DNA of 56,324 nt, taken from the NCBI GenBank assembly GCA_044345075.1, contig JBIJBU010000001.1:1-56324 (forward strand). Reading direction: 5' to 3'. Positions 11,116-38,106 of the stretch are shown here, in pieces. Numbering within the stretch: position 1 is the first letter of the stretch; every line of letters begins with the position of its first letter. The notes under the pieces were generated by a model, which searched no databases, was not told where the DNA came from, and saw only the letters and a program-made list of their open reading frames with translations. The translations under genes and the position numbers were made by a program. The stretch comes from Candidatus Nanopelagicales bacterium. Its GTDB lineage: Bacteria; Actinomycetota; Actinomycetes; S36-B12.

Positions 11116-11117
11116 GA

Positions 11118-11306
11118 CTAGGAGATCTCGATGGCCTGCATCGGGCAGACGTCAGCGGCGCTCTCGACATCAGCGCGACGATCGTCGGCAACCTCAGCGA
11201 CGTAGACGATGTGCCCGGCAGCATCGAGGGAGAAGACGTCAGGTGCCTCGAAGCAGCACTGGCCGTAGTGCTGGCACTTGTCCATGTCGATGGTGACCTT
11301 GATCAT
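11118..11306 (-). CDS. Small [3Fe-4S]-type ferredoxin of the kind that partners with P450s
   Basis: The 62-aa product is MIKVTIDMDKCQHYGQCCFEAPDVF...VCPMQAIEI. The C-x5-C...CP cysteine pattern is typical of actinobacterial P450 ferredoxins. Confidence 0.85.
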   Translation of the reverse strand: MIKVTIDMDKCQHYGQCCFEAPDVFSLDAAGHIVYVAEVADDRRADVESAADVCPMQAIEIS

Positions 11307-13095: not shown

Positions 13096-14546
13096 CCGTT
13101 CGGTGCGAACACGGTGTTCTTGACGTCAGCGTAGAAATCAAATGACCACAAGCCGCCCTCGCGACCGATGCCTGAACGCTTCGAGCCGCCGAACGGCGCT
13201 GAGAGATCGCGAACGAAGAAGCAGTTCACCCAGATCGTGCCGGCGACCAGGAACTTCGTGAAGGCCTCTGCACGCTCGCGATTGCCACTGACGACGCAGG
13301 CTGCGAGCCCGAACTCAGTGCCATTGGCGAGTGCCAGGCCTTCCTCGTCGGTGTCGAAGGTTTGCATCGTGAGAACGGGGCCGAAGACCTCTTGCGTGAG
13401 GATCTCGCTGCCCGCAGGTGCGTCGATCACGAGTGTCGGCTTGATGTAGTGAGTGCCGAGTGCGGAGTTCACTTCGCCGCCGTACGCGATCGTTGCGCCG
13501 TCGTTCTTCGCACGCTCGATGAAACCGGTGACGCGCTCCACATGCTTGAGGTGGATATTCGGCCCGATCTGGGTTTCCTCATCGCGCGGATCGCCCTGCT
13601 TGATCTGCGCAGCACGCTCAGCGAACTTTGCGGCGAACGCCTCGGCAATGCCCTTCTGTACGAGCAGTCGAGTGCCAGCAAGGCACACCTGGCCGGCGTT
13701 GTCGTACTGCTCGATCGCGAGCTCAACAGCGAGATCGAGATCGGCGTCGTCGAGGATCACTGTCGGGCTCTTGCCGCCGAGTTCGAATGAGCACGGGATC
13801 AGATTCTCAGCGGCTGCGCGAGCGACGGTCTTCGCGGTGGGCACCGAGCCGGTGAAGCAGATGCGCGAGACATCGGGATTCTCGGTGAGAGGTGCACCGG
13901 CCTCGACGCCGAAGCCCTGCACGACATTGAACACACCTGCGGGCAGGCCTGCCTCATGTGCGAGCTGTGCGAAGTACGAAGCCGTGAGCGGTGCCCACTC
14001 CGGTGGCTTGAGCACCACAGTGTCGCCCGAGGCCAGTGCCGGCCCGATGCGCCAGGTGGCGAGCATCAGTGGTGCATTCCACGGCGTGATGATTACCGCA
14101 ACACCGGAGGGATCCCAGGTGACGTGGTTGGTGTGACCGCGTGTTTCGAACTCAGGGTGCTTGAGATCGTTCATCGCGTAGTCAGCGAAGTAGCGGATGT
14201 TCATGACGACGCGGGGCATGACTCCGCGGCGATGCGAGCGCAGCAGCGAACCGTTGTCGTGAGTCTCGAGCTGGGCGAGCTCCTCGATGTGCGCCTCGAT
14301 GTTGTCGGCAACCTTGTGCAAGATCGCGCCGCGCTCCTGCGGGCTCAACTTGGCCCAGGCAGGGAAGGCGGCCTTGGCCGCGGCGACTGCGGCATCGGCT
14401 TCGGCGCGACCGCCTCGGCTGACCTGCGCGATCACGGTGCCGTCGATGGGGGAGACCGAGTCGAAGGTGTCGGCGGAAGCTACCCGCTGACCCCCGATCC
14501 AGTGCCGGGTATCAACCGTGACGCCGGCAACGGTGGCAGTCGACAT
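13086..14546 (-). CDS. NAD-dependent aldehyde dehydrogenase (HpaE-like ring-fission semialdehyde dehydrogenase)
   Basis: ALDH motifs are FTGSVPTAK, ELGGKSP and the catalytic CLAGTRL. I trimmed the start from 14684 to ATG 14546 (MSTATVAGVTVDTRHWIGG). Confidence 0.85.
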   Translation of the reverse strand: MSTATVAGVTVDTRHWIGGQRVASADTFDSVSPIDGTVIAQVSRGGRAEADAAVAAAKAAFPAWAKLSPQERGAILHKVADNIEAHIEELAQLETHDNGSLLRSHRRGVMPRVVMNIRYFADYAMNDLKHPEFETRGHTNHVTWDPSGVAVIITPWNAPLMLATWRIGPALASGDTVVLKPPEWAPLTASYFAQLAHEAGLPAGVFNVVQGFGVEAGAPLTENPDVSRICFTGSVPTAKTVARAAAENLIPCSFELGGKSPTVILDDADLDLAVELAIEQYDNAGQVCLAGTRLLVQKGIAEAFAAKFAERAAQIKQGDPRDEETQIGPNIHLKHVERVTGFIERAKNDGATIAYGGEVNSALGTHYIKPTLVIDAPAGSEILTQEVFGPVLTMQTFDTDEEGLALANGTEFGLAACVVSGNRERAEAFTKFLVAGTIWVNCFFVRDLSAPFGGSKRSGIGREGGLWSFDFYADVKNTVFAPNGWK

Positions 14547-14592
14547 CTGTGCTCTCATTCGTCGTTCGGAAAGTATGCTGATCGCAATTCTA

Positions 14593-14614
14593 GATCGTTC
14601 GGACCCTAACGGAA
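14593..14614. promoter_or_regulatory. Island operator motif, site 1 (GATCGTTCGG-AC-CCTAACGGAA)
   Basis: The left half matches the consensus perfectly and the right half matches 6/10. An extra half-site, cgTCGTTCGG, lies at 14561-14570. The site sits between the divergent starts at 14546 (-) and 14647 (+). Confidence 0.5.
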
Positions 14615-14646
14615 TACGGGTCCGGCCACCAGCCTTTGGAGGAATT

Positions 14647-15345
14647 GTGACCCGTCCGCGCATTGCGATCCTGGGCAGGTTCACCGAATCGGCGAGTGCC
14701 TTGCGCTACCGCGGTCTGGTCAGCTCCCGTGCCCTCCTGGAATACGTCTGGGCCGCCGGCGGCGACCCCATGACCTTGCTGCCTGGCAGTGACGCTGATG
14801 CTCTCGACTGGGAGGCCCGACTCCGGGGTTTTGAAGGAGTACTGCTCCCTGGTGGCGGTGATATCCGTCCGACTCGTTACGGCAAGGGTGACGATGATCC
14901 GACCCTGTACGACATGGACGACATGCAGGATGAGTCCGACTTCACACTTACCCGCTACTGCCTTGACCAGGGGATCCCGATGCTCGCGGTCTGCCGCGGC
15001 CTGCATGTGCTCAACGTGGTGACGGGCGGCACCCTTGTGGTGGACATGCCCGATCACCACCGTCATGTGGTGCACGACGTGACCTTGAGCGAGGGCGCTA
15101 CAGCCCTGGGAATCACGGATTCGCACGTGGCTGCGTCCTGCTACCACCATCAGGCGGTCGAGCGCGTGGGCGACGGGCTGACCGTCATCGGAATGTCAGC
15201 AGACGGCATCGTGGAGGCAGTCGTCGCCGATGCGAAGGCCTGGACAGTCGGCGTGCAATGGCACCCGGAGGACACCTACGCCAGCGATGAGCACCAGATG
15301 CAGCTGATGCGGCGCCTCGTGCAGGAGTCGTCGAGCGTTCTCTGA
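14647..15345 (+). CDS. Gamma-glutamyl-gamma-aminobutyrate hydrolase family protein (PuuD-like, peptidase C26 / class I GATase)
   Basis: The nucleophile motif is LAVCRGLHVLNV and the His motif is GVQWHPE. A GGAGG RBS precedes GTG 14647. I trimmed the ORF-track start at 14518 because it overlaps the divergent gene. Confidence 0.8.
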   Translation: MTRPRIAILGRFTESASALRYRGLVSSRALLEYVWAAGGDPMTLLPGSDADALDWEARLRGFEGVLLPGGGDIRPTRYGKGDDDPTLYDMDDMQDESDFTLTRYCLDQGIPMLAVCRGLHVLNVVTGGTLVVDMPDHHRHVVHDVTLSEGATALGITDSHVAASCYHHQAVERVGDGLTVIGMSADGIVEAVVADAKAWTVGVQWHPEDTYASDEHQMQLMRRLVQESSSVL

Positions 15346-15361
15346 CTAGGGCAAGGAACGG

Positions 15362-15853
15362 CTAATTCGCGGCTTGCGTGATGCGGCGCAGGATGTCGGC
15401 AGCCACGGGCTGCTCTGCCGAGGTGAGGTCGCGCACCACGTGGCGCTCAGCCTTGTTGAAGTCCGGGAAGAGCTTCTTCATCAGGCGCTTGCCCGAGGCA
15501 GTCAACTCGACCGTGACGAGGCGACCGTCCTTCTCGCCGCGCTTGCGCTCGACGAAGCCGCGGCCTTCGAGGGTGGTGAGCACCCCGCTCAGAGTGGCCT
15601 TGGAGACCCCGGCCTCGGAGGCGATCTCACGGGTCTCGGCGGTCTCCCAGATCCAGGCCACCCAGAGCACCACGAAGGCTGTCCAGGTGAGGTTGGACTT
15701 GGCCAGCACCGTGCGCTCCATGTGATTGCGGGCAGCATTGGCGGCGCGGAACAGGTTGGCGGTGACGGCCATGGCCTCGAAGTCGAGATCCATTCCGGCC
15801 AGGCGCGTAGCGACCTGGCTCTCGGTCTCGTCGAGAGTGTGCTGCCCGGGCAT
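15362..15853 (-). CDS. MarR family transcriptional regulator
   Basis: The product is 163 aa. The winged-helix region is EIASEAGVSKATLSGVLTTLEGRGFVERKRGEKDGRLVTVELTASG. Confidence 0.85.
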   Translation of the reverse strand: MPGQHTLDETESQVATRLAGMDLDFEAMAVTANLFRAANAARNHMERTVLAKSNLTWTAFVVLWVAWIWETAETREIASEAGVSKATLSGVLTTLEGRGFVERKRGEKDGRLVTVELTASGKRLMKKLFPDFNKAERHVVRDLTSAEQPVAADILRRITQAAN

Positions 15854-15867
15854 ATGGCCCCCATCTT

Positions 15868-15891
15868 GAGGTGAATCGTGAGGTGATTCGT
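15868..15891. repeat. Tandem 12-nt direct repeat GAGGTGAATCGT / GAGGTGATTCGT
   Basis: I read this directly from the sequence. It lies 15-38 nt upstream of the MarR start codon in the MarR/P450 divergent region and may be an operator. Confidence 0.5.
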
Positions 15892-15978
15892 GTGGCCTGT
15901 CGAGGCACGTGATCAGGAATTATTGCCCGAAGTCTGGCAACACTTCACATGAATCGCCACATCGGTCTACAGTACTCA

Positions 15979-16000
15979 GATAGTTCGGACCCGAACGATC
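15979..16000. promoter_or_regulatory. Island operator motif, site 2 (GATAGTTCGG-AC-CCGAACGATC)
   Basis: This is a 22-bp palindrome with one mismatch between its arms. It ends 18 nt upstream of the P450 ATG at 16019. Confidence 0.6.
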
Positions 16001-16018
16001 TTGAGTTCCGGAGGATTC

Positions 16019-17263
16019 ATGAGCACGCTGACCGATGTCACCCTGGCCGACCTGAGCCTCTTCGCTGATGGCGCCCCCTGGCAGGTCTTCGAAGATCTGC
16101 GCAAGAACTCGCCTGTCCACTGGAACGTGGAGGAGGCTCCGAACAACGGCTTCTGGTCGGTTACTCGCTACAACGACATCGTCGACGTGCTTCGCGACAC
16201 CGAGACCTACTCCAGCGAGATTGGCGCGGCCAATCTCGAGGAGCTCGACACTCGCCAGCTCGAAATCCGCAAGTCGATTCTGGAGACCGACGGCCCTCGT
16301 CACCGCGCCCTGCGCAAGATGCTGCAGCCGCAGTTCACCCCTCGCGCGCTCGCGGGCTACGAGACCTTCCTTCGCGGTATCACCGCCACGACCCTTGATC
16401 GTGCACTCGCCAAGGATCAGTTCGACTTCGTCGCCGACGTCGCCGCTGATTTCCCGATTCGCGTGCTGGCGCAGTTGCTCGACGTTCCCGAGTCCGACAT
16501 TCCTCAGCTGATCAAGTGGGGAAACAAGATGGTCGGAAATCAGGACCCCGAGCATGCCGATGTTCTCGCCGACAGCCCTGAAAGTGAGATGTACCGCGAT
16601 CTCCCGTTCCGTTCGCCGGCAGCTCTCGAGGTGTTCAAGTACGGGTACGAGCTCGCCTGGGGTCGCAAGGGTGGTAACGGAACCGACCTCGTGTCGGTGC
16701 TGATCAACACCGAGCCGTCTGACGGCATTGCTATCGATGCACGTGACTTCCGCAATTACTTCCTGCTGCTCGTCATCGCAGGCAACGAGACCACTCGCCA
16801 CACCATTACGCACACCATGAACAACCTGATGGCCAACCCCGATCAGCTTGCAATCCTTCGCGAGAAGCCCGAACTGATCCCGTGGGCCGTGGAGGAATTC
16901 CTGCGCATGGCTAGCCCGGTGCATCACTTCCGTCGTACCGCGCGGCACGAGACAGTGCTCAATGGCCAGGAGATCAAGGCCGGCGACAAGGTTGTCGTGT
17001 GGTTCGGCTCTGGCAATCGCGACGAGGAAATCTTCGCCGATCCCTACAAGTTCGACGTGCAGCGTCATCCGAATGAGCACATGTCCTTCGGCCGCGGTGG
17101 CCCGCATATGTGCCTGGGCAACTCACTCGCGCGCCTCGAGATCCAGATCATGTTCGAGGATCTTCTCTCTCGCGATGTTGATCTGATGCCCAATGGAAAA
17201 GCTGATTACGTGCTGAGCAACTTCGTGCACGGCTTCAAGCGCCTGCCGGTCAAGAAGGCGTAA
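16019..17263 (+). CDS. Cytochrome P450 monooxygenase
   Basis: The heme-binding loop is FGRGGPHMCLGNSLA, the I-helix is VIAGNETTR and the ExxR motif is EEFLR. A GGAGGA RBS precedes ATG 16019. Confidence 0.9.
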   Translation: MSTLTDVTLADLSLFADGAPWQVFEDLRKNSPVHWNVEEAPNNGFWSVTRYNDIVDVLRDTETYSSEIGAANLEELDTRQLEIRKSILETDGPRHRALRKMLQPQFTPRALAGYETFLRGITATTLDRALAKDQFDFVADVAADFPIRVLAQLLDVPESDIPQLIKWGNKMVGNQDPEHADVLADSPESEMYRDLPFRSPAALEVFKYGYELAWGRKGGNGTDLVSVLINTEPSDGIAIDARDFRNYFLLLVIAGNETTRHTITHTMNNLMANPDQLAILREKPELIPWAVEEFLRMASPVHHFRRTARHETVLNGQEIKAGDKVVVWFGSGNRDEEIFADPYKFDVQRHPNEHMSFGRGGPHMCLGNSLARLEIQIMFEDLLSRDVDLMPNGKADYVLSNFVHGFKRLPVKKA

Positions 17264-17280
17264 TTCATCCGAGCAATGAT

Positions 17281-17310
17281 GAAGGGCCGTCGACTACTCG
17301 CCGGCCCTTC
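17281..17310. terminator. Hairpin between convergent genes (probable bidirectional terminator)
   Basis: GAAGGGCCG and CGGCCCTTC form a perfect 9-bp stem around a 12-nt loop. The hairpin lies between the P450 stop (17263) and the GATase1 stop (17324). Confidence 0.55.
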
Positions 17311-17323
17311 GTCATCTCAGCTT

Positions 17324-18055
17324 TCAGTCGCGAACGAGATGCCCGAGTCCGGCCACGTTGGTGAGGAAGCTGTCGACGAGAGCATGGGCACGCTTCTGCG
17401 CCTTTGGCTCCTCGGCATATGAATAGGCAAGGAGAACATCGGGATCCTGACCGTCAGCGATGATCAAGTCGCGACCATCGCCCGGTGAGCTGTACCAGCC
17501 CTGCAGCATGTCGCCGGTGAGCTCGGGGTGGAACTGCAGTGCCAGGTTCTTGCGCAGAGTGAAGGCCTGCGACGCCCGAGAGGTGCGCGCGATCTCGGTG
17601 GCGTCCGGTGGCAGTACCCAGCGGTCATAGTGGAAGGAGAACCACGGCCCTTGGGGCACGAGTTCTTCGTCGTCGCTCCACACGCTTGTCCAGCCGATCT
17701 CGCAGTCTGGCGCGCGCCCGACGCCGCCGCCGTGCGCACGTGCCAGCAACTGACCACCGAAGCAGATGCCCATGACGGGCACACCAGCCGCATCGGCCTC
17801 GCGCAGCCATTCGACCTCGGGCAGGAGCCATGAGCCGATAGTGGAGTCATCCCAGGCCCCCCAGGGTGAGCCCATGGGGACGATGACATCGAAGGTGGTG
17901 GGGTTGGGGAACTCGTAGGTCACGACGCCGGGGGTGTTGTAGTGCGCGGCCTCGACGATGAGCTCTTCCACCACCTCAAAGCCGAGTTCGGCGAATCGCT
18001 CGGAGACGAGCCGGGGCGGGCTGAAGGCGTCGTGCTGCATGAATAGAACCCGCAT
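17324..18055 (-). CDS. Class I glutamine amidotransferase-like protein (GATase1), candidate gamma-glutamyl-amide hydrolase
   Basis: The nucleophile elbow is MGICFGGQLLA and the His motif is LQFHPE. I trimmed the start from 18391 to ATG 18055 (MRVLFMQHDAFSPP). Confidence 0.8.
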   Translation of the reverse strand: MRVLFMQHDAFSPPRLVSERFAELGFEVVEELIVEAAHYNTPGVVTYEFPNPTTFDVIVPMGSPWGAWDDSTIGSWLLPEVEWLREADAAGVPVMGICFGGQLLARAHGGGVGRAPDCEIGWTSVWSDDEELVPQGPWFSFHYDRWVLPPDATEIARTSRASQAFTLRKNLALQFHPELTGDMLQGWYSSPGDGRDLIIADGQDPDVLLAYSYAEEPKAQKRAHALVDSFLTNVAGLGHLVRD

Positions 18056-18111
18056 GCGGCAAATCCTCTCCCAAACTGGCCCCGCGGGAGGACGATTCGA
18101 CATAGGATTTC

Positions 18112-18137
18112 GAGATCGTTGGGGGCCGAACGATCTC
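18112..18137. promoter_or_regulatory. Island operator motif, site 3 (GAGATCGTTGGG-GG-CCGAACGATCTC)
   Basis: This is a 26-bp palindrome with 11/12 arm matches, the best copy. It lies between the divergent starts at 18055 (-) and 18188 (+). Confidence 0.65.
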
Positions 18138-18187
18138 TGACGATACTCACAAAGGCGAGAAACTCGCAACGGCGACAGGGGCAGCAC

Positions 18188-19537
18188 ATGCAGCAGGATT
18201 TGGCAGACGTCCGCAGGGACCTCGAGACCCAGGGCATCGACATCCTTCGGCTGCTGTGGCCCGATGTACTCGGCCTGCCGCGCTCGAAGGACATCACGGT
18301 GTCGCAGCTCGAGCGAGCGGCCGGTCACGGCCCCGCCTTCTGCCAGGCCACCTGGACAACCACGACTCGCGGTGACGTTCTCGACGGCCACGGCAGTCTT
18401 CAGGACGGACTCTCCGACATGGTGTCGCGTCTTGACGCGTCCACCATTCGCCCGATGCCGTGGGAGGAGGGCGTCGCCTACGCGATCGCTGACATTGACG
18501 AGCCGGACGGAACCCCGAATGCCATCGCGCCGCGGTCACTGCTGCGCCGCATCATCGAGGAGTACAAGGCACTCGGTCTGCTCCCGGTTGTTGGGCCCGA
18601 ACTCGAGTTCTATTTTGCGCACAAGCCGAGTGACAAGTGGGAGCGCATCCTCAACAAGACCGGCCGCGTGTACCAGACAGGTTCACTCGTCGATCCCGAC
18701 GGAACCTTCCTGTACCTGCTTCGCATGCTCGATCGCCTCAACATTGGCGCCTTTGCGGGCAACCACGAGTTCTGCCCGTCGCAGTACGAGATCAACCTGT
18801 GGCACGGCGATGCACTCGATGCTGCTGATCGCACCTTCTTGTTCAAGACCGCAATCAAGGACATCACGAATCGTCGCGGCATCATGAGCACCTTCATCGG
18901 CAAGCCGTGGGACGACGAGGGAGGCAGCGGTTTCCACCTGCACTTCTCAGTCACTGATGTCAACGGCCAGAACTTGATGGGCGAGCCCGACGGCGAGCTC
19001 TCGCTGATCTCACGGCGCATGATGGCCGGCATCCTCGAGCACGCACCTGCACTCGTGGCCTTCTGCAACCCGACCATTAACGCCTACAAGCGCCTCGGCC
19101 CCGACACCATGGCCCCTCATCGTTCGAGCTGGGGCTACGACAACCGCACCACGTTCATCCGCATCCCACCGGAGCGTGGTGCGGGCACCCGCCTCGAGGT
19201 GCGCATCGGCGACGGCGCTGCGAACCCGTATGTGATGATCGCGGTGATTCTCGCGGCGGCCCTCGATGGCCTTCGCCGTCAGCTCGACTGCCCGCCGCAC
19301 TCTGAGGGCTGGTCATACACCGACGAGAGCCGCCCGGTGCTGCCCATGACCCTCACCGATTCGCTCAATGCCATGCGTGCCGACACCTTCCTGGTCGACA
19401 TCCTGGGCGAGCCCTTCGTGCAGGCCTTCGAGACTCTCAAGCGCGACGAGGTCAAGCGTTACGAGGAGGCCGTCGAGGATCCCAGCACTCGTGAGGTGAC
19501 CGCGTGGGAGATCGCGGAGTACCTAGAGGACTATTAG
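18188..19537 (+). CDS. Glutamine synthetase family protein (GS-like gamma-glutamyl ligase), copy 1
   Basis: GS catalytic-domain motifs are GPELEFYF, NHEFCPSQYEIN, GSGFHLHFS, NAYKRL and RIPP...RLEVR. The N-terminal domain is short, as in PuuA/GlnA2-4-type ligases. I trimmed the start to ATG 18188. Confidence 0.85.
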   Translation: MQQDLADVRRDLETQGIDILRLLWPDVLGLPRSKDITVSQLERAAGHGPAFCQATWTTTTRGDVLDGHGSLQDGLSDMVSRLDASTIRPMPWEEGVAYAIADIDEPDGTPNAIAPRSLLRRIIEEYKALGLLPVVGPELEFYFAHKPSDKWERILNKTGRVYQTGSLVDPDGTFLYLLRMLDRLNIGAFAGNHEFCPSQYEINLWHGDALDAADRTFLFKTAIKDITNRRGIMSTFIGKPWDDEGGSGFHLHFSVTDVNGQNLMGEPDGELSLISRRMMAGILEHAPALVAFCNPTINAYKRLGPDTMAPHRSSWGYDNRTTFIRIPPERGAGTRLEVRIGDGAANPYVMIAVILAAALDGLRRQLDCPPHSEGWSYTDESRPVLPMTLTDSLNAMRADTFLVDILGEPFVQAFETLKRDEVKRYEEAVEDPSTREVTAWEIAEYLEDY

Positions 19538-19540
19538 AGG

Positions 19541-20386
19541 GTGCATAACTTCATCCTCACCCTGCGGTGCCCTGACGGCCCCGGCATTACCCATGCGATC
19601 ACGGGAGCATTGCTCTCGATCGGCGCGAACATCCTCGAGCAGGCGCAGTTCACCGAGCCGACCGAGAACCTGTTCTGCAACCGCACCCGCTTCGAGACAA
19701 AACTCGATGACATCGCTCGCGTGCGTGAGGCGATCGAGGCCGCGACCTCGCACCTGTCCCCGACGATCACGCTCCGCAATGAGCATGATCCGCGCCGCAT
19801 TCTGGTCATGGTGTCGAAGCAAGATCACTGCCTTGTCGATCTTCTCTACCGTCGCCAGCAGGGCGAACTGCACGTAGAGATCCCCGTCATCGTTTCGAAT
19901 CACCCTGATTGCGCACCGATCGCCGCGGCACATGGCATCCCGTTCGTTCACCTGCCGGTGACTCCGGAGACCAAGCAGGCGCAGGAGCACCGCGTGCGCG
20001 AACTGATGGTCGAGTACTCAATCGATGCGGTCGTGCTCGCCCGCTACATGCAGGTGCTCTCAGATGAGTTCTGCGCCGAGCTCGAGGGTCGCGCGATCAA
20101 CATCCATCACTCATTCCTGCCGGGCTTCAAGGGCGCTCGCCCGTATCACCAGGCATATGCGCGCGGTGTGAAGATCATCGGCGCCACTGCGCACTTCGTG
20201 TCAGCTGAGCTCGACGAAGGCCCCATCATCGAGCAAGACGTCGCACGCGTGACTCATGCGCAAGATCCCGAGCATCTTGCTGAGATCGGTCGAGATGTCG
20301 AGCGGCTCGTGCTCGCACGCTCAGTGCAGCTCTACGGCGCAGATCGCGTGATGCTCACCGGCCATCGCACGGTGATCTTTTCCTAG
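19541..20386 (+). CDS. purU: Formyltetrahydrofolate deformylase
   Basis: It has an N-terminal ACT domain (ILTLRCPDGPGITHAITGAL) and a formyltransferase core (LARYMQVLS...INIHHSFLPGFKGARPY...GVKIIGATAHFV). The GTG start lies 3 nt after the GS-like stop. Confidence 0.85.
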   Translation: MHNFILTLRCPDGPGITHAITGALLSIGANILEQAQFTEPTENLFCNRTRFETKLDDIARVREAIEAATSHLSPTITLRNEHDPRRILVMVSKQDHCLVDLLYRRQQGELHVEIPVIVSNHPDCAPIAAAHGIPFVHLPVTPETKQAQEHRVRELMVEYSIDAVVLARYMQVLSDEFCAELEGRAINIHHSFLPGFKGARPYHQAYARGVKIIGATAHFVSAELDEGPIIEQDVARVTHAQDPEHLAEIGRDVERLVLARSVQLYGADRVMLTGHRTVIFS

Positions 20387-20395
20387 TTGATCTGA

Positions 20396-21328
20396 CTATG
20401 CGGTCAGTGCGTCAACTCGACGCACGACCTCGCGGCAGAACTCTGCATGCTTGTCCCGCTCATCGATGAAGATCGACGGCTTGATACAGAAGGTGCTGAA
20501 GCCCATCTCGAGCTGAGCGGGAATGCCCTCCAGTGCCTCGGGCAATGGTGCGACGGAGTGCGCATCGGGGAACTCAACCCGGGTTCCACCGACCATCTCG
20601 ATCTCGTCAATGGAGCGACCGGCGGCCTCCAGGCCGGCCCGCAGCTTGGCGACATCGTCGGCCTTTGGGCGACCGAGGGGGTGGTACCCGCTGCCGTACT
20701 TCACGAGGCGGTTGAGCACGGGATCAGTCAGGCTCTCGCCGCCGAACCACATGGCTGGGCCCTGGGGCGTGCACGGCTTGGGGTCGATGTAGACGTCAGT
20801 GAAGTCGAAGAACTCTCCGTGGAAAGACGCGGGGGACTCGGCCCACACGCGGCTCCAGATCTCGAGATCCTCATCAAGGATCTTGCCGCGCTTGGTGAAC
20901 GGAACACCGAGCGCGTCGTATTCGTCCTTATGCCAGCTGACCGTCGGCTGAATCACGAGCCGACCCTCGGAGAGTAGGTCGAGAGTCGCGAGATCTTTCG
21001 CGAGGGCGAGCGGATGACGCAGCGGAGCGATCAGCGCGATACCGCCGACGCGAATTCGAGTGGTAGCGGCGGCGATGGCACTGAGCATCACGATCGATGA
21101 CGGCCATTCGGTCGCGGGATCCTGATTACCCGGCATCGCGTAGTCACGTGGATTCTCCATGCGACCCTCGGAGCCGGCCGAGGGGCCGAGCAGCACATGG
21201 TCGCTGATCATGATCATGTCGAAGCCGGCATCCTCGGCCTCCTGGGCCATGCGCACGATGCCGCGAATATCGCGCGGGTCGGTCATGGTCCAGTTCTCGG
21301 TGAGAACGCTGACGAGCTTCGGCTTCAT
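20396..21328 (-). CDS. LLM-class (luciferase-like) flavin/F420-dependent oxidoreductase
   Basis: The N-terminus is ...AQEAEDAGFDMIMISDHV. The overall pattern is a TIM barrel typical of the bacterial luciferase family. Confidence 0.75.
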   Translation of the reverse strand: MKPKLVSVLTENWTMTDPRDIRGIVRMAQEAEDAGFDMIMISDHVLLGPSAGSEGRMENPRDYAMPGNQDPATEWPSSIVMLSAIAAATTRIRVGGIALIAPLRHPLALAKDLATLDLLSEGRLVIQPTVSWHKDEYDALGVPFTKRGKILDEDLEIWSRVWAESPASFHGEFFDFTDVYIDPKPCTPQGPAMWFGGESLTDPVLNRLVKYGSGYHPLGRPKADDVAKLRAGLEAAGRSIDEIEMVGGTRVEFPDAHSVAPLPEALEGIPAQLEMGFSTFCIKPSIFIDERDKHAEFCREVVRRVDALTA

Positions 21329-21339
21329 GCGCTGACGAA

Positions 21340-22149
21340 CTAGATCGCAGCCGAGTTGTCGGCGAGCAGCGTGCCGCCATGGAAGGTCGTGCCGACCTCG
21401 CAGTAGTAGCCGGCGATGATCTCGTCGACAGGCAGCAGTGATGCTGGCTGATCCCAGGGTGAGTCATGCAAGGTGAGTTCGGCATCGCCGATCCACGGCT
21501 GGCCGAGATCGAGATCGACGCCGCCCATCGTGGCGAGCTGGTTCAGCGACAGCCCGGCGCCAGGCACCATCGACGGCATCACGCGGTGATGCAGCATCTT
21601 GTGACCGTTGACAAAGCCATTCGACGGTGCTGGCTCACGCAGGGTGACCTTTGCACTTGCGAGTCGATGGTCGTACGCGGCGAGTGATGCGCCGAAGGTG
21701 CCACCCTCAGCAATCCGCGGAGCAGCCTTGCCACGGTTGTACGGGCGGGTGACGAAGACACTGCCGAGCTTCTTCGGGTAGCCCTGGAACCAGCCGCGAC
21801 CGATCGCGAAGTCGGTGGTGACCCAGATCAGCACGCAGCGGCTGTAGGTGACGCCCTGGTAGGAACAGCGCACCACGACGAAGGCCTCGAGGTATTGGGC
21901 ACGCGAGGGATCGAGGAGTTCGGCGCCACCGGTGCTGCACGACTGCCAATCGGCCCAGATGAACGCGACTGCTCCGGGGTCCTCCGGCGCGAGGTCGAGC
22001 TCGGGGGGCAAGATCGCGCGCACGTTCGCCGGGTCAGTGCGGTACTCAACTGTCATCAAGGTGCCGGAGTAGTGCCAGGGCATCTCGGGAATGAGTGCCG
22101 AGCCGCCATCGGGCGTGAAGGGGGGCAAGAAGCCCTGGGAGTTCGCCAT
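21340..22149 (-). CDS. Acetoacetate decarboxylase (ADC) family protein
   Basis: MANSQGFLPPFTPDGGSALIPEMPWHYSG..LMTVEYRTDPANVRAILP is characteristic of the ADC-like fold. I trimmed the start to ATG 22149. Confidence 0.7.
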   Translation of the reverse strand: MANSQGFLPPFTPDGGSALIPEMPWHYSGTLMTVEYRTDPANVRAILPPELDLAPEDPGAVAFIWADWQSCSTGGAELLDPSRAQYLEAFVVVRCSYQGVTYSRCVLIWVTTDFAIGRGWFQGYPKKLGSVFVTRPYNRGKAAPRIAEGGTFGASLAAYDHRLASAKVTLREPAPSNGFVNGHKMLHHRVMPSMVPGAGLSLNQLATMGGVDLDLGQPWIGDAELTLHDSPWDQPASLLPVDEIIAGYYCEVGTTFHGGTLLADNSAAI

Positions 22150-22176
22150 AGTGCAGGAGCCTAGCAACTCCTCGGG

Positions 22177-22198
22177 GATCGTTTGGGCCCAAACAACC
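22177..22198. promoter_or_regulatory. Island operator motif, site 4 (GATCGTTTGG-GC-CCAAACAACC)
   Basis: It contains the perfect 14-bp palindrome GTTTGGGCCCAAAC. It lies between the divergent starts at 22149 (-) and 22254 (+, TetR). Confidence 0.55.
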
Positions 22199-22253
22199 GA
22201 TTTCCTGGATGGCCCATAGGGCACTTCCGTTCACTCGGCATTAGCCTTCGGGG

Positions 22254-22898
22254 GTGCCGCAGAAGCCCGCCCGCCAGCGCCTCAATCGCGAGGTGATCTG
22301 TGCTGCCGCCCTTGAGCTCGCGGCGGAGTCCGGCAGCCCCGATGTGAGCATGCGCGCCCTCGGCGAGCGTCTCGGTGTCGATGCTACGGCCGTGTACCGG
22401 CACTTCTCCGACAAGGACGACCTGATGCGTGCCGTCGGTGACCGAGCACTTGCCCCGGCGACCAGGGGATTCACCACCACTGACGATCCCGCCGACGATG
22501 TGCGCCGCATGTGCACCGGCATTCGCAAGGCCCTGCTCAAGAATCAGGTCGCGCTGATCATTACGTCGGCCGGCCCGACCCGAAACGCGAATGAGCTGCG
22601 CATCACCGAGGTCATGCTCGATGCCTTCCTGCGTGCGGGCATGGATCCTGACTCGGCGGCTCGGGCGTATCACGTGCTCATTGAGTACACCGTGGGATCT
22701 GCATCCCTCGATGCGCCGCTCTCGCGGAATGCGAAGGAGCGCAGGGCCACATACGACACCTGGCGTCGTGACTACCGAGCATTACCTGCGGATGAGTACC
22801 CGGCGATCCATGAACTCGTCGGTCATTTGTACCCGAGTAGTGACGACGTATTCGCCACCGGTCTCAGTGCGCTCATCGCACAACTGATGCCCGCTTAG
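22254..22898 (+). CDS. TetR family transcriptional regulator
   Basis: The N-terminal HTH is REVICAAALELAAESGSPDVSMRALGERLGVDATAVYRHFSDKDDL. The start codon is GTG. Confidence 0.85.
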   Translation: MPQKPARQRLNREVICAAALELAAESGSPDVSMRALGERLGVDATAVYRHFSDKDDLMRAVGDRALAPATRGFTTTDDPADDVRRMCTGIRKALLKNQVALIITSAGPTRNANELRITEVMLDAFLRAGMDPDSAARAYHVLIEYTVGSASLDAPLSRNAKERRATYDTWRRDYRALPADEYPAIHELVGHLYPSSDDVFATGLSALIAQLMPA

Positions 22899-22904
22899 CG
22901 CGAC

Positions 22905-24176
22905 TTAGTACACGCGGGCGTACTCGCCCTGCTCCCAATCGGTAACCGCCGACTCCCAGCGCTTCCATTCGCTGCGCTTAAGCCCGACGTAGACCTCGAC
23001 GAGATCCTTCTCGAGGTACGACTGCAACTTGGTATCGGCTTCGAGAGCATCGAGTGACTCAGCGAGTGAATGCGGAGTATGGCGATCTGTGTTCGGTGCC
23101 TCATCGGCGTCACCGAGCTGCGGGTCAGGAAGTGCAAGCTTCTCGTCGACACCATGCATGCCGGCGGCGAATAGTGCAGCGCTCAGCAGATGCGGTGTTG
23201 CACTGCCATCTGCCATGCGGTGCTCGACGCGTGTGGTGGCACCGCGCTGTCCGGGCACGCGCACGGTGGCGATGCGATTGTCGAGACCCCAGTTCGCCCA
23301 GTAGCCGCTGAGCATGCCGGGGGTCAGGCGCTTGTAGGAGTTCACGGTAGGTGCGGCGAAGGCGGTGAGTGCCTCGTGATGAGCAAGGAGTCCTGCGATG
23401 AAATGACGCGCGAGGTCGGTGATACCCAGAGGATCATCGAGGCTTGCGAACATATTCTCGCCCGCGGCATTCGCGAGGCTCATGTTCACGTGCATGCCGT
23501 TACCGACGGCATCGGCGAACGGACGTGCCATGAAGGTTGCGTCGACGCCGCGCTCGCGTGCTGTTAGGCGCACGAGCTCGCGGAAGAGCAGTGCGCAGTC
23601 GGCTGACTCGAGCGCAGGCTGGTAGTGCAGTGCAGCCTCAACCTGGCTCGGTGTGAATTCGGCGTTGACACCCTCGACCTGAAGGCGGGCCATCTCGGCG
23701 AGCTCGACCACTGCCTCGAGAGTGCCGCTCGGATCAGCGCCGGCACCAATGCCATAGACGCGATGATCAGGAACAGGCATCTTCACGAGCGGCTTCAGGC
23801 TCTCGAGCAGGAAGAACTCCATCTCGAAGCCGGTCATCGGCGTGTAACCGCGCTGGCCCCACTGATCGCAGATCATGCGCAGCTGGCGGCGTCCGTCGAG
23901 GGGAAGCTCTTCGCCATTGGTGCGGTAAAGATTCGAGAGTGCGATCTGGCGGCCGTTGATCCACGGGCGCAAGGTGGCGGAATCGATGCGCGCTTCCATG
24001 TCGGGGAAGCCCGCACTGGTGGAGTAGGTCGGCGTATCGAGGAACTCGAGATCGAGCCCCTGCACCATCACCGTGATGGCGTAGTGAGTTGGATGATCGA
24101 CGCGGTGAGTGGGAACTGTCTTGCCGTGAGTGAGCCCGAGGAGGTCGGGAAAGATCACGTCGATCTGGTCAGCCAC
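22905..24176 (-). CDS. Glutamine synthetase family protein (GS-like ligase), copy 2
   Basis: Motifs are GFEMEFFL, NAEFTPSQVEAAL, GNGMHVNMSL, NSYKRL and RVP...TRVEHR. I set the start to GTG 24176, 1 nt after the upstream TGA stop (24178-24180). The ORF-track start is 24200. Confidence 0.85.
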   Translation of the reverse strand: MADQIDVIFPDLLGLTHGKTVPTHRVDHPTHYAITVMVQGLDLEFLDTPTYSTSAGFPDMEARIDSATLRPWINGRQIALSNLYRTNGEELPLDGRRQLRMICDQWGQRGYTPMTGFEMEFFLLESLKPLVKMPVPDHRVYGIGAGADPSGTLEAVVELAEMARLQVEGVNAEFTPSQVEAALHYQPALESADCALLFRELVRLTARERGVDATFMARPFADAVGNGMHVNMSLANAAGENMFASLDDPLGITDLARHFIAGLLAHHEALTAFAAPTVNSYKRLTPGMLSGYWANWGLDNRIATVRVPGQRGATTRVEHRMADGSATPHLLSAALFAAGMHGVDEKLALPDPQLGDADEAPNTDRHTPHSLAESLDALEADTKLQSYLEKDLVEVYVGLKRSEWKRWESAVTDWEQGEYARVY

Positions 24177-24177
24177 G

Positions 24178-25239
24178 TCAGTTCGCCTCTCCGGCAGCAA
24201 CGCCGACCAGTGTTCCCTTGTCGACTACCTGATGATCATCGAGCCATACGCTGTGACCGCGCATCGGAAGATCGAAGTGACCGGCGGTGAAGCGTTGTGC
24301 ATTCTCATTCGCTCCGGTGCTGAACAGGAAGTTGCCGGCGAATGCTCGCGCCTCGGTGCCGTTGATGTCTGAGCGGTCGTAAAGCTCGAGGAAATCCCAG
24401 CGCGCACCGGTATTCATTCCGAACCCGACGTGGCTGACGGCGTAGGCGTCTTCGTCGAAGGCCTCAAGGTACGAGCGCATGAGTTCAGCCTGGTAGCCGC
24501 TGCCCTTGATCTCGACGACGTAGTCATTCTCGATGCGCATCGTGATGGGTTCAGTGATGTAGTGCTTGAAGGTCAGGTTCATGTCACCAGGTGCGAGAAC
24601 GACGGTGCCATTGACGGTGCCCTTCGCCGGGAAGGCGAGTACGAGACCACCGGGCCAGTGAGCGATCGAACCCGGTCCGGAGATAACACCGGTAGAACCT
24701 GCGGTGAATGCGCCAGCGAGCTCAACAGTGAGATCGGTGCCGAACTCACTCGTGGCGCGCATCGTCTTCGACCGCTTCATGAGTTCATGTGCGGCACTCA
24801 CGCGTTCCGCCATCACCGGATCGTGACGCATGCGTTCGTAGACCTCGGGGTGCTCAAGGCTGACCATCAAGATGCTGGTGCCCGAGGAGAGAATCGCACC
24901 GAGTTCCTTTGCATGAAGCATTCCCTCGACAGTGCAGTCGACAACGAACGGCACAGAGGACAGCGAACTGATTGCGCCGGCGAGACCGTTGAGTGCCACT
25001 GATGCGCCGGTCGAGCGGATCGCAACCGGGCCGGGGTTCGCCGGCGTGCGCATGACAACCTCGAACGGCTTTGCCCCAAGTGACTCGAGCGCGAGAATCG
25101 ATGTCTCGACGAGATCGGCGCGACTGGATGACTCGGAGAGCACGATGCACTCCATGCCCTCGGTCACTCCGTTGACCTTGAAATGCGCGGCGAAGGACTC
25201 GATCCAGCGCCATTCGGCGACAGGCGGTCGGACGGTCAT
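24178..25239 (-). CDS. NicX-like protein (2,5-dihydroxypyridine 5,6-dioxygenase / aminopeptidase-M29-like fold)
   Basis: The C-terminal half reads YAVSHVGFGMN...ARAFAGNFLFSTGANE...GHFDLPMRGHSVWLDD. It tracks what I recall of Pseudomonas putida NicX (SHIGWG, ARAFYGNFLFSTGPN, HLDIPLRNCDIYLDD), including the presumed Fe(II) ligand positions. Confidence 0.65.
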   Translation of the reverse strand: MTVRPPVAEWRWIESFAAHFKVNGVTEGMECIVLSESSSRADLVETSILALESLGAKPFEVVMRTPANPGPVAIRSTGASVALNGLAGAISSLSSVPFVVDCTVEGMLHAKELGAILSSGTSILMVSLEHPEVYERMRHDPVMAERVSAAHELMKRSKTMRATSEFGTDLTVELAGAFTAGSTGVISGPGSIAHWPGGLVLAFPAKGTVNGTVVLAPGDMNLTFKHYITEPITMRIENDYVVEIKGSGYQAELMRSYLEAFDEDAYAVSHVGFGMNTGARWDFLELYDRSDINGTEARAFAGNFLFSTGANENAQRFTAGHFDLPMRGHSVWLDDHQVVDKGTLVGVAAGEAN

Positions 25240-26030
25240 GTGGTCTCCCAGTGCTGAAGGATTGCGCGGTTCACGGCGTCAGGTGCCTCGAGGTTGAGCA
25301 GGTGCCCGGCGCCGGGAATCGTGACAAGTGTGGCACTGGGCATCAGATCAACGATGGCCTTCGAGTAGGAAGGCGGGGTTTCATCATCATCCTCGCCGAT
25401 CAGCACGAGGGTGGGCACGGTGATCTCAGGCAGGATCGCCCGCGAATCGTGTGAGGGCAGGATCGAGAGACTAGTGAGCATGCCGGCCATAGGAATGCGT
25501 GCCATCGCCTCACAGGCCTCGGGCACGACGTGCTGAGCCTCGGGCCCGGCGAGGGAGCTCAGGATCACGGGCGCCGCCGCGGCCACCGTGCCGAAGGTTT
25601 CCAGGCCCTTCAGTCGGTTATTGCGCCACTCGTCAGGGTCGGTACCGTCGAGTCCGAAAGCCGGGCTGGTGCAGATCAGGGTGAGTGAGCGCACCAACTT
25701 AGGGTGCGCATGAGTCATGTACTGGGCGATCATGCCGCCGAATGACGTGCCGACGAGGTCGACGGGGGCATCCGGGGATACCCGACGAATCAGTGCGGCC
25801 GCTCGATCGGCGTACCCCGCGAAGCTCTGCACCTCGACCGGCGCCGATTCGCCGTAACCGGGCGCATCCCAGGCCACGACCCGCTCTGCCTCGGCAAGCA
25901 CGGGCAGGTTCGGGCCCCAGGCGATGCGTGAGCCGCCGAGCCCATGAAGAAGGACGGCCACGCGGGGCCCGTCGCCTGCCTCACGCCAGGCATTCGGGCT
26001 CTCGTCGACATCGGTGATCGTGATCGGCAT
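25236..26030 (-). CDS. Alpha/beta-fold hydrolase (NicD-like deformylase/amidase candidate)
   Basis: The oxyanion region is HGLGGS, the nucleophile elbow is VGTSFGG and the C-terminal His is GAGHL. Its stop overlaps the NicX-like start (ATGA-type overlap at 25239-25236). Confidence 0.8.
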   Translation of the reverse strand: MPITITDVDESPNAWREAGDGPRVAVLLHGLGGSRIAWGPNLPVLAEAERVVAWDAPGYGESAPVEVQSFAGYADRAAALIRRVSPDAPVDLVGTSFGGMIAQYMTHAHPKLVRSLTLICTSPAFGLDGTDPDEWRNNRLKGLETFGTVAAAAPVILSSLAGPEAQHVVPEACEAMARIPMAGMLTSLSILPSHDSRAILPEITVPTLVLIGEDDDETPPSYSKAIVDLMPSATLVTIPGAGHLLNLEAPDAVNRAILQHWETT

Positions 26031-26060
26031 GTTCGAAAACTAGGGCCGCATATCAATTTA

Positions 26061-26075
26061 GTCAACAGTGTTGAC
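26061..26075. promoter_or_regulatory. Perfect palindrome GTCAAC-AGT-GTTGAC overlapping a TTGACA -35-like hexamer
   Basis: I read this directly in the AT-rich 75-bp divergent region between starts 26030 (-) and 26106 (+). TTGACA lies at 26071-26076. Confidence 0.55.
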
Positions 26076-26105
26076 ATTTCATTTTCGTTCCCTATTCTCA
26101 AGCAC

Positions 26106-27368
26106 ATGACTCCTCCGAATGCCGTTGCCGCACATGAAGGTTCCTCCGTTGCCACGGGCTCGACCGGCGGCAAGACCGGCCCGATCGGTACCCCTGACTC
26201 CACGATGACCCGCGACGAGATGGTTGCTGTTATTCGCGAGCTGGGCCCGACCTTCGACGCGCGAGCTGTCGATACCGATCTGAACGCCGAGTTCCCCTGG
26301 GGCAACTTCAATGACCTTCGTGAGCGTGGCTTCTTGGCCCTATGCGTGCCGAAGGAGTACGGCGGCATGGGTGCGAGCTACGCCGACTACATCCGCGTCT
26401 CCGAGGAAATCGGTCGTCACTGCGGCTCGACCGGCCTCACGTTCAATATGCACAATGCCACGATGCTGTGGGCTGGCCAGGTGGCTGACTTGCTCGACAT
26501 GAGCCCGGAGGAGCGCGAGACCCACGAGCGTCGGCGCGCCGAAATGTTCCGCGGGGTGGTCGAGAACGGTGAGATTCATTCGCAGCCGTTTAGCGAGGGC
26601 CTGAACCCCGGTGCACTCGCGGGCATCATGACCCGAGCGACCCCGGTCGAGGGCGGCTACCTCGTCACCGGTCGAAAGATCTTCGCCTCGCTATCCGGCG
26701 CAGCCGATCGGTACAACGTCACCTGCCAGGTCGAGGGCGAGGAATTCTTGCGCCTGCTCTCGGTTCGCTCGAAGAGCGAAGGCGTGGAGATCGTGGACGA
26801 CTGGGATCCCCTGGGCATGCGCGGCACCGTCTCGCGCACTCTGCTGCTCAAGGACGTCTTCGTCCCGGCCGATGACGAGATCATGCCCGGCGGCATGTAC
26901 GACCAGGCCGCCAAGCGCTTCCCGTATCTATTCATGTCGCTGGCGCCCTCATACCTCGGCCTGACCAAGGGAATCCTCGACTTCACCCGCAGCTACTTGC
27001 GCGGCGAGGTTGCCGGAGCAGCCAAGGGCACCGGCCGTCGCGATAACCCAATTAAGCAGTACGGGTGGGCAGAAATGAACATCAAGTACGAGCAGTCGCG
27101 CGCGATGCTTTTCAGCGTGGTCGACTCGGCCAGCCTCGACCCCGTTGAGGAGCAGATGGTGACCGCCTGGGCAGCCGTTTACACGGTCATGGAGCACGCG
27201 AACGCCGTCGCCGCCCTTGCTGTTCGGGTGTGCGGTGGCCAGGCAATGCTCAAGCATCTGCCGCTTGAGCGGATGTACCGAGACTCCCGCCTGGGATCCA
27301 CGATGTTGCCCTGGAGCGCCGAGGTCGCCCTGGAGCGCATCGGGAAATCAGGCCTGTACGACGCATAA
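26106..27368 (+). CDS. Acyl-CoA dehydrogenase-fold flavoprotein (dehydrogenase or ACAD-type monooxygenase)
   Basis: The ACAD layout is visible (GFLALCVPKEYGGMGASY, ...DPLGMRGT...). A Gly/Ser/Thr-rich N-terminal extension of about 35 aa precedes the fold. I trimmed the start to ATG 26106. Confidence 0.75.
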   Translation: MTPPNAVAAHEGSSVATGSTGGKTGPIGTPDSTMTRDEMVAVIRELGPTFDARAVDTDLNAEFPWGNFNDLRERGFLALCVPKEYGGMGASYADYIRVSEEIGRHCGSTGLTFNMHNATMLWAGQVADLLDMSPEERETHERRRAEMFRGVVENGEIHSQPFSEGLNPGALAGIMTRATPVEGGYLVTGRKIFASLSGAADRYNVTCQVEGEEFLRLLSVRSKSEGVEIVDDWDPLGMRGTVSRTLLLKDVFVPADDEIMPGGMYDQAAKRFPYLFMSLAPSYLGLTKGILDFTRSYLRGEVAGAAKGTGRRDNPIKQYGWAEMNIKYEQSRAMLFSVVDSASLDPVEEQMVTAWAAVYTVMEHANAVAALAVRVCGGQAMLKHLPLERMYRDSRLGSTMLPWSAEVALERIGKSGLYDA

Positions 27369-27400
27369 ACCTGAAGGAAGACGCGGAATCGTTACCGCGC

Positions 27401-27415
27401 CACTTTCCGAAAGTG
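27401..27415. promoter_or_regulatory. Palindrome CACTTTC-C-GAAAGTG
   Basis: I read this directly in the 129-bp spacer between the ACAD-fold gene and the permease gene. The 1-nt centre argues for a protein-binding site rather than a stable RNA hairpin. Confidence 0.35.
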
Positions 27416-27450
27416 CTTGCGCAGCGCCCCTGTTTAATCAAGTATTCGTA

Positions 27451-27472
27451 AGTCGTTCGGTTCCGTACAAGC
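27451..27472. promoter_or_regulatory. Island operator motif, site 5 (AGTCGTTCGG-TT-CCGTACAAGC)
   Basis: The left half matches 8/10 and the right half 7/10 to the consensus. It lies 26 nt upstream of the permease ATG at 27498. Confidence 0.45.
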
Positions 27473-29097: not shown

Positions 29098-29111
29098 ATT
29101 CACTGGTGAAT
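29098..29111. promoter_or_regulatory. Perfect palindrome ATTCAC-TG-GTGAAT
   Basis: I read this directly, 16 nt upstream of the CoA-ligase ATG at 29127. It shares the GTGA(A/T)T core with the 15868-15891 tandem repeat. Confidence 0.45.
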
Positions 29112-29126
29112 GGGGCGGGAGGAACC

Positions 29127-38063: not shown

Positions 38064-38073
38064 AGGCTATTTG

Positions 38074-38085
38074 TATCATTTATCA
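38074..38085. promoter_or_regulatory. Direct repeat TATCA-TT-TATCA (candidate GntR operator, copy B)
   Basis: It lies in the 43-bp region between the ACAD start (38063, -) and the GntR start (38107, +). Confidence 0.4.
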
Positions 38086-38106
38086 GAAATCTGGGCAGGA
38101 GGAATC

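Follow-up and report, generated by a model that had tools for sequence, protein, structure and literature searches.

A conserved 22-bp pseudo-palindrome marks the promoters of one module of a Nanopelagicales gene island and is probably bound by the MarR-family regulator of that module

The question raised by this locus is which protein reads a 22-bp pseudo-palindrome that recurs in a gene island of a Candidatus Nanopelagicales bacterium, and which genes that protein controls. The stretch analyzed here, referred to as the window, comprises positions 1–56,324 of contig JBIJBU010000001.1 (assembly GCA_044345075.1; 56,324 bp, 62% GC) and was scanned in full. Five copies of the palindrome, S1–S5, lie in promoter regions of the island. 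The original prediction, made from the letters of the window, was that one regulator binds all five and coordinates physically separate modules, with the product of a TetR-family gene (22254–22898) as the simplest candidate and that of a MarR-family gene (15362–15853) as the alternative. Comparison with orthologous loci in other genomes reveals that the motif is conserved at specific promoters and points to MarR, not TetR, as its probable binder.

The scan used the consensus GATCGTTCGGNNCCGAACGATC, with 20 scored positions, which was derived from the five sites themselves; written by arms, the motif is the 22-bp pseudo-palindrome GATCGTTCGG-AT-CCGAACGATC. S1 (18114–18135, GATCGTTGGGGGCCGAACGATC; 19/20 positions matching the consensus, 27.6 bits) is located in the divergent region between the genes for a class-I glutamine amidotransferase-like protein (GATase, − strand) and a GS-like ligase (GS-like-1, + strand), and direct reading of its extended form, 18112–18137, gives GA/TC flanks. 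S2 (15979–16000, GATAGTTCGGACCCGAACGATC; 19/20, 30.1 bits) occupies the divergent region between MarR (−) and the cytochrome gene P450-1 (+). S3 (22177–22198, GATCGTTTGGGCCCAAACAACC; 16/20, 23.8 bits) is proximal to an ADC-like gene, in a spacer that is here common to ADC and TetR. S4 (14593–14614, GATCGTTCGGACCCTAACGGAA; 16/20, 23.8 bits) separates an operon on the − strand, Aldh-LigB-FAH-Fdx-FdR, from a Peptidase_C26 gene (C26, +), and S5 (27451–27472, AGTCGTTCGGTTCCGTACAAGC; 15/20, 18.1 bits) is proximal to, and upstream of, the gene for an APC-family permease. Reading of the sequence confirmed all five copies, and the genes that each had been said to serve were borne out by Pfam matches and by the open reading frame (ORF) of the ferredoxin.

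The five sites stand out from the composition of the window. Relative to 200 dinucleotide-preserving shuffles of the whole window, matches of ≥15/20 number 5 observed versus 0.69 expected, those of ≥16/20 number 4 versus 0.055, and those of ≥17/20 number 2 versus 0.01. The top five positions by consensus score are exactly S1–S5, all intergenic, and the 8-mer TCGTTCGG occurs five times in 56 kb, each time within one of the S1–S5 intergenic regions. A non-circular check was provided by an independent weight matrix built from 124 unique sites, all from other genomes, which scores S1–S5 at 18.1–30.1 bits and the best other position of the window at 10.8 bits; the original prediction therefore captured all of the sites and only the sites. 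The additional half-site that it reported at 14561–14570 (TCGTCGTTCGG), 23 bp to the left of S4, is present in the sequence; it lacks a counterpart arm, the closest orthologs (L003–L005) do not conserve it, and it is probably fortuitous or lineage-specific. A further pair of arms, GATCGTTCG (448–456) and CGAACGATC (506–514), was considered as a site and rejected, as the arms are 49 bp apart and the matrix does not recognize them.

Conservation was examined in 80 loci from species-representative genomes of Nanopelagicales and Microbacteriaceae, anchored on GS-like-1 and extended by up to 10 kb on each side, with GS-like identities of 54–98% and GC contents of 45–70%. The closest loci (87–98% identity) come from freshwater Nanopelagicales and acSTL-type metagenome-assembled genomes (MAGs); the others are mostly Microbacteriaceae (54–70%), including Frigoribacterium, Lacisediminihabitans, Salinibacterium, Rhodoglobus, Aurantimicrobium, and Rhodoluna. 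Searches with the window proteins (tblastn) define a conserved core of FdR-FAH-LigB-Aldh, C26, MarR, P450-1, GATase, GS-like-1, ADC, and the APC permease. Counting the best match of ≥14/20 within 250 bp of the start codon, a level reached by 6.6% of 260-bp background windows, the motif is found upstream of GS-like-1 in 68/75 loci, GATase in 63/70, the APC permease in 42/46, ADC in 50/58, P450-1 in 44/56, MarR in 41/57, C26 in 21/32, and Aldh in 30/49. The operon led by Aldh has the motif upstream of this first gene only, with none upstream of LigB, FAH, or FdR, and across the loci these internal genes have 0–1 matches at ≥14/20. The luciferase-like monooxygenase (LLM) gene has no upstream motif, except in loci where it faces the APC permease gene. 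Genes of the second and third modules of the island (GS-like-2 to AMP-ligase and P450-2 to GntR) have 0–2 matches, none of them ≥16/20.

The motif is thus kept at the same operon-leading promoters in up to 80 loci, which answers the call of the original prediction for a look at orthologous genes in relatives. At a matrix threshold of ≥17 bits, 1.14 Mb of locus sequence contains 272 matches, of which 262 are ≤300 bp upstream of target genes, 9 lie elsewhere, and a single one is intragenic. Within the sequence covered, neither an equal frequency in coding regions nor an absence from orthologous promoters was observed, and the notion that one regulator coordinates separate modules, the redox partners of the P450 (ferredoxin and ferredoxin reductase) among them, is strongly supported by this conservation.

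The arrangement of the sites is conserved as well. The Aldh|C26 spacer contains one site in 27/27 intergenic regions. ADC and the APC permease are commonly arranged divergently with a spacer of ~340–370 bp, and in 31/37 such loci this spacer contains two sites, one 10–30 bp from the ADC start and one adjoining the APC start. The ADC-proximal site is 9–28 bp from the ADC start whether the neighbor is TetR or the permease, and in 7/7 loci with an ADC|TetR spacer the spacer has one site, the ADC-proximal one. In the window, the distance to the ADC start is 28 bp for S3, and that to the APC start is 25 bp for S5. As judged from these loci, S3 is the ancestral ADC-proximal operator and S5 the APC-adjoining one, with the TetR module sitting between them.

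An ortholog of MarR is present in 57 loci (tblastn), and in 50 of these a site lies ≤300 bp upstream of its start. The other 7 loci are rearranged; there MarR follows GATase or P450-1 on the same strand, as the distal gene of a unit with a site at its head. MarR is therefore under motif control in every arrangement, with a motif-bearing promoter in 57/57 loci. Among the regulators of the window, MarR alone co-occurs with the motif, and the loci share no other conserved regulator. The protein has a MarR domain (PF01047, 53.4 bits versus a cut-off of 24.6) and matches 40 MarR structures by sequence; in a profile search for homologs, the top 120 matches listed are all orthologs annotated as “MarR family transcriptional regulator.” S2 provides the pseudo-palindrome in its own promoter region, the MarR/P450-1 intergenic region, that is expected for autoregulation. 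Orthologs of 54–70% identity show no variation in the recognition helix and wing (SKATL.GV..TLE and DGRLV.V), which parallels the 93–99% invariance of motif positions 6, 9, 14, and 17. From its co-occurrence with the motif, it is probable that MarR, likely as a homodimer, is the binder of S1–S5, and the protein that had been named as the alternative is the one that fits.

At the GS-like and P450 promoters, the location of the sites relative to putative promoter elements is consistent with repression. When the regions upstream of GS-like-1 are aligned ungapped on the operator (~60 loci), a conserved cTAGTATc block that ends ~5 bp before the operator is seen. In the window, it corresponds to a −10-like hexamer of GS-like-1, TAGGAT (18104–18109, + strand), which ends 4–5 bp before S1, and a consensus scan assigns to P450-1 a promoter-like TTCACA-18-TACAGT (15944–15973, + strand) that ends 5 bp before S2; orthologous P450 promoters have TAnnnT-like hexamers at the matching offset. 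Downstream, the end of S2 is 18 bp before the ATG of P450-1, and in many genomes a ribosome-binding site and ATG follow within 13–20 bp after the GS-like-1 operator. We infer that 18104–18109 and 15944–15973 are promoter elements, in which case the operator would cover roughly +1 to +22 at the GS-like and P450 promoters, a predicted position that fits polymerase occlusion or a block of promoter clearance. The two half-sites are most informative at positions 6 and 17, a separation of 11 bp or about one helical turn. In MarR–DNA complexes, such spacing suits a winged-helix dimer that reads two consecutive major grooves from one side of the helix; taken alone, the spacing would be compatible with a TetR-type dimer too.

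In the mechanism that we propose, a MarR dimer would, without inducer, sit on the operator, immediately downstream of the −10 element at the GS-like and P450 promoters. From the five operator regions it would repress nine transcription units: Aldh-LigB-FAH-Fdx-FdR, C26, marR itself, P450-1, GATase, GS-like-1/PurU, ADC/LLM, the APC permease, and, incidentally, TetR. By analogy with catabolic MarR regulators such as HpaR and PcaV, a small molecule, which could be the imported amine or an aromatic or γ-glutamylated intermediate, would release the repressor.

Several points weigh against this assignment. MarR was assigned by co-localization, which is not binding; one contig has an operator-bearing GATase/GS pair without MarR; a second, unlinked regulator of equal specificity may exist, the scans having covered the window and 1.14 Mb of loci; and the −10 elements were assigned by consensus matching, read at the GS-like and P450 promoters. 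The first two points, together with the fact that the scans covered the window and locus flanks, would also suit a regulator encoded outside the cluster, a paralog or a broader regulator, that binds the operator and leaves MarR to control another target or to fine-tune. The contig in question (L001, from a Nanopelagicales MAG, 10.6 kb; positions 2889–3203 and the contig as a whole) carries GATase and GS-like-1 as a pair, with an S1-type operator that does not differ from the one in the window. It otherwise contains a DDE transposase (insertion sequence, IS) fragment, a Lon_C-domain protein, and an MFS transporter; MarR and the other core genes are absent, and the contig encodes no regulator at all. 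It is rearranged or mis-assembled and is uninformative as a counter-example. An outside regulator is also difficult to reconcile with a motif that is essentially confined to cluster promoters both across 1.14 Mb of flanking sequence and over the other ~36 kb of the window, with a MarR gene that is under motif control without exception, which is what an autoregulated local repressor would show, and with the lack of any other regulator conserved in the loci, and we regard it as unlikely. For TetR, binding the palindrome and coordinating the island, the protein has the TetR_N helix-turn-helix (HTH) domain, S3 is 56 bp upstream of its start, and palindromes of this size are typical targets of TetR dimers. 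A TetR homolog, however, is found in only 8/80 loci, always with the accessory GS-like-2–M29–hydrolase–ACAD module, whereas the site upstream of GS-like-1 persists in 64 loci that have no TetR homolog, and TetR was rejected as binder on this pattern and on the origin of S3. The copy in the TetR promoter, which had made TetR appear the simplest candidate, is there because S3 is the conserved ADC-proximal operator, found wherever ADC exists, the TetR module being placed between the ADC and permease genes. The TetR-linked genes GS-like-2, M29, hydrolase, ACAD, and AMP-ligase have no upstream motif, and the TetR module has a different invariant palindrome at its divergent promoter. Together, these observations make TetR a very improbable reader of the motif.

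Two further explanations concern the nature of the element rather than its binder, and the first was weighed with 156 unique orthologous sites. If the palindromes acted as RNA, they would form hairpins in 5′ untranslated regions (5′-UTRs) that affect stability, attenuation, or translation; the GS-like-1 and P450-1 elements are situated between a putative −10 element and the ribosome-binding site and so would be transcribed, and complementary double changes are in excess at pair 4/19 (13 versus 4.2 expected). This is the clearest excess, and at most pairs compensatory double changes are at or below independent expectation. A typical site has only 6–8/10 complementary positions, a perfect palindrome is found in 1/156, and deviations from the consensus are mostly one-sided, breaking arm complementarity. 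Positions 6, 9, 14, and 17 are 93–99% invariant as bases across GC contents of 45–70%, and one element at the center of a divergent region serves promoters on either strand. Base identity is kept rather than pairing, which argues for a DNA element read by a protein and leaves the RNA hairpin with hardly any probability. The imperfections themselves are specific to classes of sites. Position 4 is non-C in 45/53 sites of the P450 class versus C in 74/75 GS-like-1 sites; position 15 is T in 31/41 sites of the Aldh class versus G in 51/75 GS-like-1 sites; and position 16 is non-A in 22/33 sites of the permease-proximal class versus A in 74/75 GS-like-1, 41/41 Aldh, and 53/53 P450 sites. S2, S4, and S5 of the window have exactly the bases of their classes, and the conserved imperfections suggest tuned affinities or overlapping promoter constraints. 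These data also bear on the possibility that only S1 and S2 are functional and that the resemblance of S3–S5 is due to chance, as might be thought from their arms, which are complementary at only 6–8/10 positions, and from a consensus that was derived from the sites themselves. The independent matrix gives S3–S5 18–24 bits versus 10.8 for the best non-site, most loci have orthologous sites at each of these promoters, and the deviations are class-specific and conserved, so that a chance origin is extremely unlikely.

The proposed MarR/operator pair is reminiscent of catabolic MarR repressors such as HpaR of the hpa-meta operon of E. coli W and Yersinia, PcaV of Streptomyces coelicolor, and OhrR. 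Common features are the winged HTH MarR domain, a regulator gene embedded in the cluster of its putative targets, predicted autoregulation, and a pseudo-palindromic operator of ~20 bp with its most informative positions 11 bp apart; at the GS-like and P450 promoters this operator would abut or overlap the −10/+1 region. As in the HpaR system, neighboring genes resemble hpaD, hpaE, and hpaG. The island MarR nevertheless differs from HpaR, scoring 54.0 bits against the TIGR02337 equivalog cut-off of 121.2, which is its best NCBIfam match and below threshold, and its best E-value against PDB structures, 7e-9, indicates a family-level relationship only. HpaR operators have the form TTAA-N4-TTAA (PMC7180172), of which the window has 0 occurrences. 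Unlike these systems with their one or two promoters, the system described here would comprise five operator regions and nine transcription units. It would thus constitute a local autoregulated MarR-type repressor with its operator, and the regulator is not an HpaR ortholog.

With local repressors of the TetR family (TetR/tetO, QacR, KstR), the island shares a palindromic operator in a divergent promoter and a TetR gene that adjoins one copy. It differs from them in that motif and TetR do not occur together across genomes, no KstR-type pattern is present, and the TetR module has its own palindrome. The consensus strings of KstR, AmtR, and GlnR are TnnAACnnGTTnnA, CTAT-N6-ATAG, and GTnAC-N6-GnAAC, respectively; they have 0 matches anywhere in the window, in agreement with the earlier view that the motif is not one of these boxes.

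With regard to the regulated genes, a similar combination is found in clusters for γ-glutamylation-dependent amine catabolism, namely, AtdA1/A2 or TdnQ/T for aniline, NpaA1 for 1-naphthylamine, Ipu for isopropylamine, and Puu for putrescine. Shared elements are a ligase of the GS-like type, a GATase-like protein of class I, a γ-glutamyl hydrolase resembling PuuD, an oxygenase together with its redox partners, and enzymes of the ring-cleavage type; the precedent for aniline and naphthylamine has been described (PMC11335346, PMC4539516). Unlike in these clusters, the oxygenase here is a P450 of the CYP125/124/153 clade and not a Rieske dioxygenase, and the downstream genes are LigB/HpaD-like, HpaE-like, HpaG-like, and MppR/ADC-like. 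A literature search for the island, for P450-associated γ-glutamyl aromatic amines, and for the motif string yielded no relevant work, the operator databases RegPrecise, CollecTF, and PRODORIC lying outside that search.

Within the 30-kb island, which encodes three GS-like proteins, two P450s, and three regulators, the motif marks the boundary of a functional module: the proposed MarR regulon consists of the Aldh operon, C26, P450-1, GATase, GS-like-1, ADC, and the permease, and the TetR- and GntR-linked modules are separate. This regulon is common to many uncultured freshwater Actinobacteria and to culturable Microbacteriaceae; therefore, what is learned of the pathway and its inducer in isolates could be transferred to the uncultured lineages. 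More tentatively, one might envision a nine-unit regulon, conserved at the family-to-order level, for γ-glutamylation- and P450-dependent amine catabolism that feeds HpaD/E/G-like ring cleavage in abundant freshwater and marine Actinobacteria (Nanopelagicales and Luna-type Microbacteriaceae), in which the class-specific departures at positions 4 (P450), 15 (Aldh), and 16 (permease) set a graded derepression, first of uptake, then of activation, and then of ring cleavage, by one MarR sensor; this picture as a whole is possible rather than probable. The mechanism is that of an ordinary local repressor, and its value is in annotation and ecology rather than in regulatory principle; the MarR/operator pair is also a candidate biosensor for the substrate of the pathway.

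The island (8379–38793) is composed of three modules with three different regulators (MarR, TetR, and GntR/FCD), and the 22-bp motif is present in the first module only. In total, it encodes three GS-like ligases (starting at 18188, 22905, and 33731), three GATase/C26-type proteins, and two P450s. Gene labels were checked by Pfam and NCBIfam scans, which confirmed those assigned previously. The first module begins with the Aldh operon (9940–14546, − strand), which encodes an aldehyde dehydrogenase (Aldh), a LigB-type extradiol dioxygenase, an FAA-hydrolase-family enzyme (FAH), a ferredoxin (Fdx; 11118–11306, − strand, a 62-aa ORF), and a ferredoxin reductase (FdR). Of these, the dioxygenase gene resembles hpaD, the dehydrogenase gene hpaE, and the FAA-hydrolase gene hpaG; elsewhere in the module, the ADC-like gene is similar to MppR. 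The ferredoxin reductase gene is followed directly by an ORF of 513 aa (8379–9920, − strand) that has no Pfam match; orthologs of 66–69% identity are found at the equivalent position in L003, L005, L011, and L014, so the Aldh operon may include it as an additional gene. C26, a γ-glutamyl hydrolase-like (PuuD-like) protein, is encoded at 14647–15345 (+ strand) and has S4 in common with the Aldh operon. MarR (15362–15853) is on the − strand and is followed by P450-1 (16019–17263, + strand), which a PDB sequence search places closest to the CYP125/124/126/153 ω-hydroxylase clade.

GATase (17324–18055, − strand) and GS-like-1 diverge from S1, the latter together with a formyltransferase-domain (PurU-like) gene (18188–20386, + strand). 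The NCBIfam matches of GS-like-1 are γ-glutamylputrescine-synthetase-like and type III GS-like, all below cut-off. The ADC/MppR-like enzyme gene and then LLM (20396–22149, − strand) follow. Beyond the accessory module described below, the APC-family amino-acid/amine permease is encoded at 27498–29039 (+ strand), with the AMP-ligase gene (29106–30725) downstream of it; the two are possibly co-transcribed. The third module extends to 38793 and includes P450-2, ADH, GS-like-3, a GATase, a CoA-transferase, ACAD, and the GntR/FCD regulator (38071–38793). This regulator was also considered as a binder and rejected: it has a homolog in one locus only (L007), and no motif is found near the genes of its module.

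The TetR-family gene (22254–22898, + strand) is followed by the accessory module, which consists of GS-like-2, M29-like, and α/β hydrolase (24200–26030, − strand) genes and of an ACAD-like gene that ends at 27368. The divergent hydrolase|ACAD spacer (26031–26105) contains the second palindrome, a perfect one of 15 bp (GTCAACAGTGTTGAC, GTCAAC-N3-GTTGAC; 26061–26075), which overlaps a promoter-like TTGACA-16-TATTCT element (26071–26098, with TTGACA as the −35-like hexamer). Three loci with TetR extend across this spacer (L014 at 17671, L016 at 9653, and L076 at 8388), and in them GTCAAC-N3-GTTGACA is invariant and its flanks are variable. By this pattern, the 15-bp palindrome is likely the operator of TetR, which would control the GS-like-2–M29–hydrolase and ACAD module. 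As called, the ACAD-like ORF (25944–27368, + strand) overlaps the hydrolase gene at its start by 87 bp; a start at the conserved ATGAC near 26105, downstream of both the palindrome and the promoter-like element, appears more likely.

A last observation concerns the interval between P450-1 and GATase, which in the window has no decarboxylase gene. In L012 this interval contains a gene for a group II pyridoxal-dependent decarboxylase (7639–9159; Pfam Pyridoxal_deC, 197 bits), and a gap of ~1.4 kb at the same place is seen in further Microbacteriaceae loci, namely, L013, L017, L019, L021, L027–L030, L040, L041, L046, L059, and L064, among others. The decarboxylase hints that, in loci that have it, the amine substrate may be made intracellularly from an amino acid.

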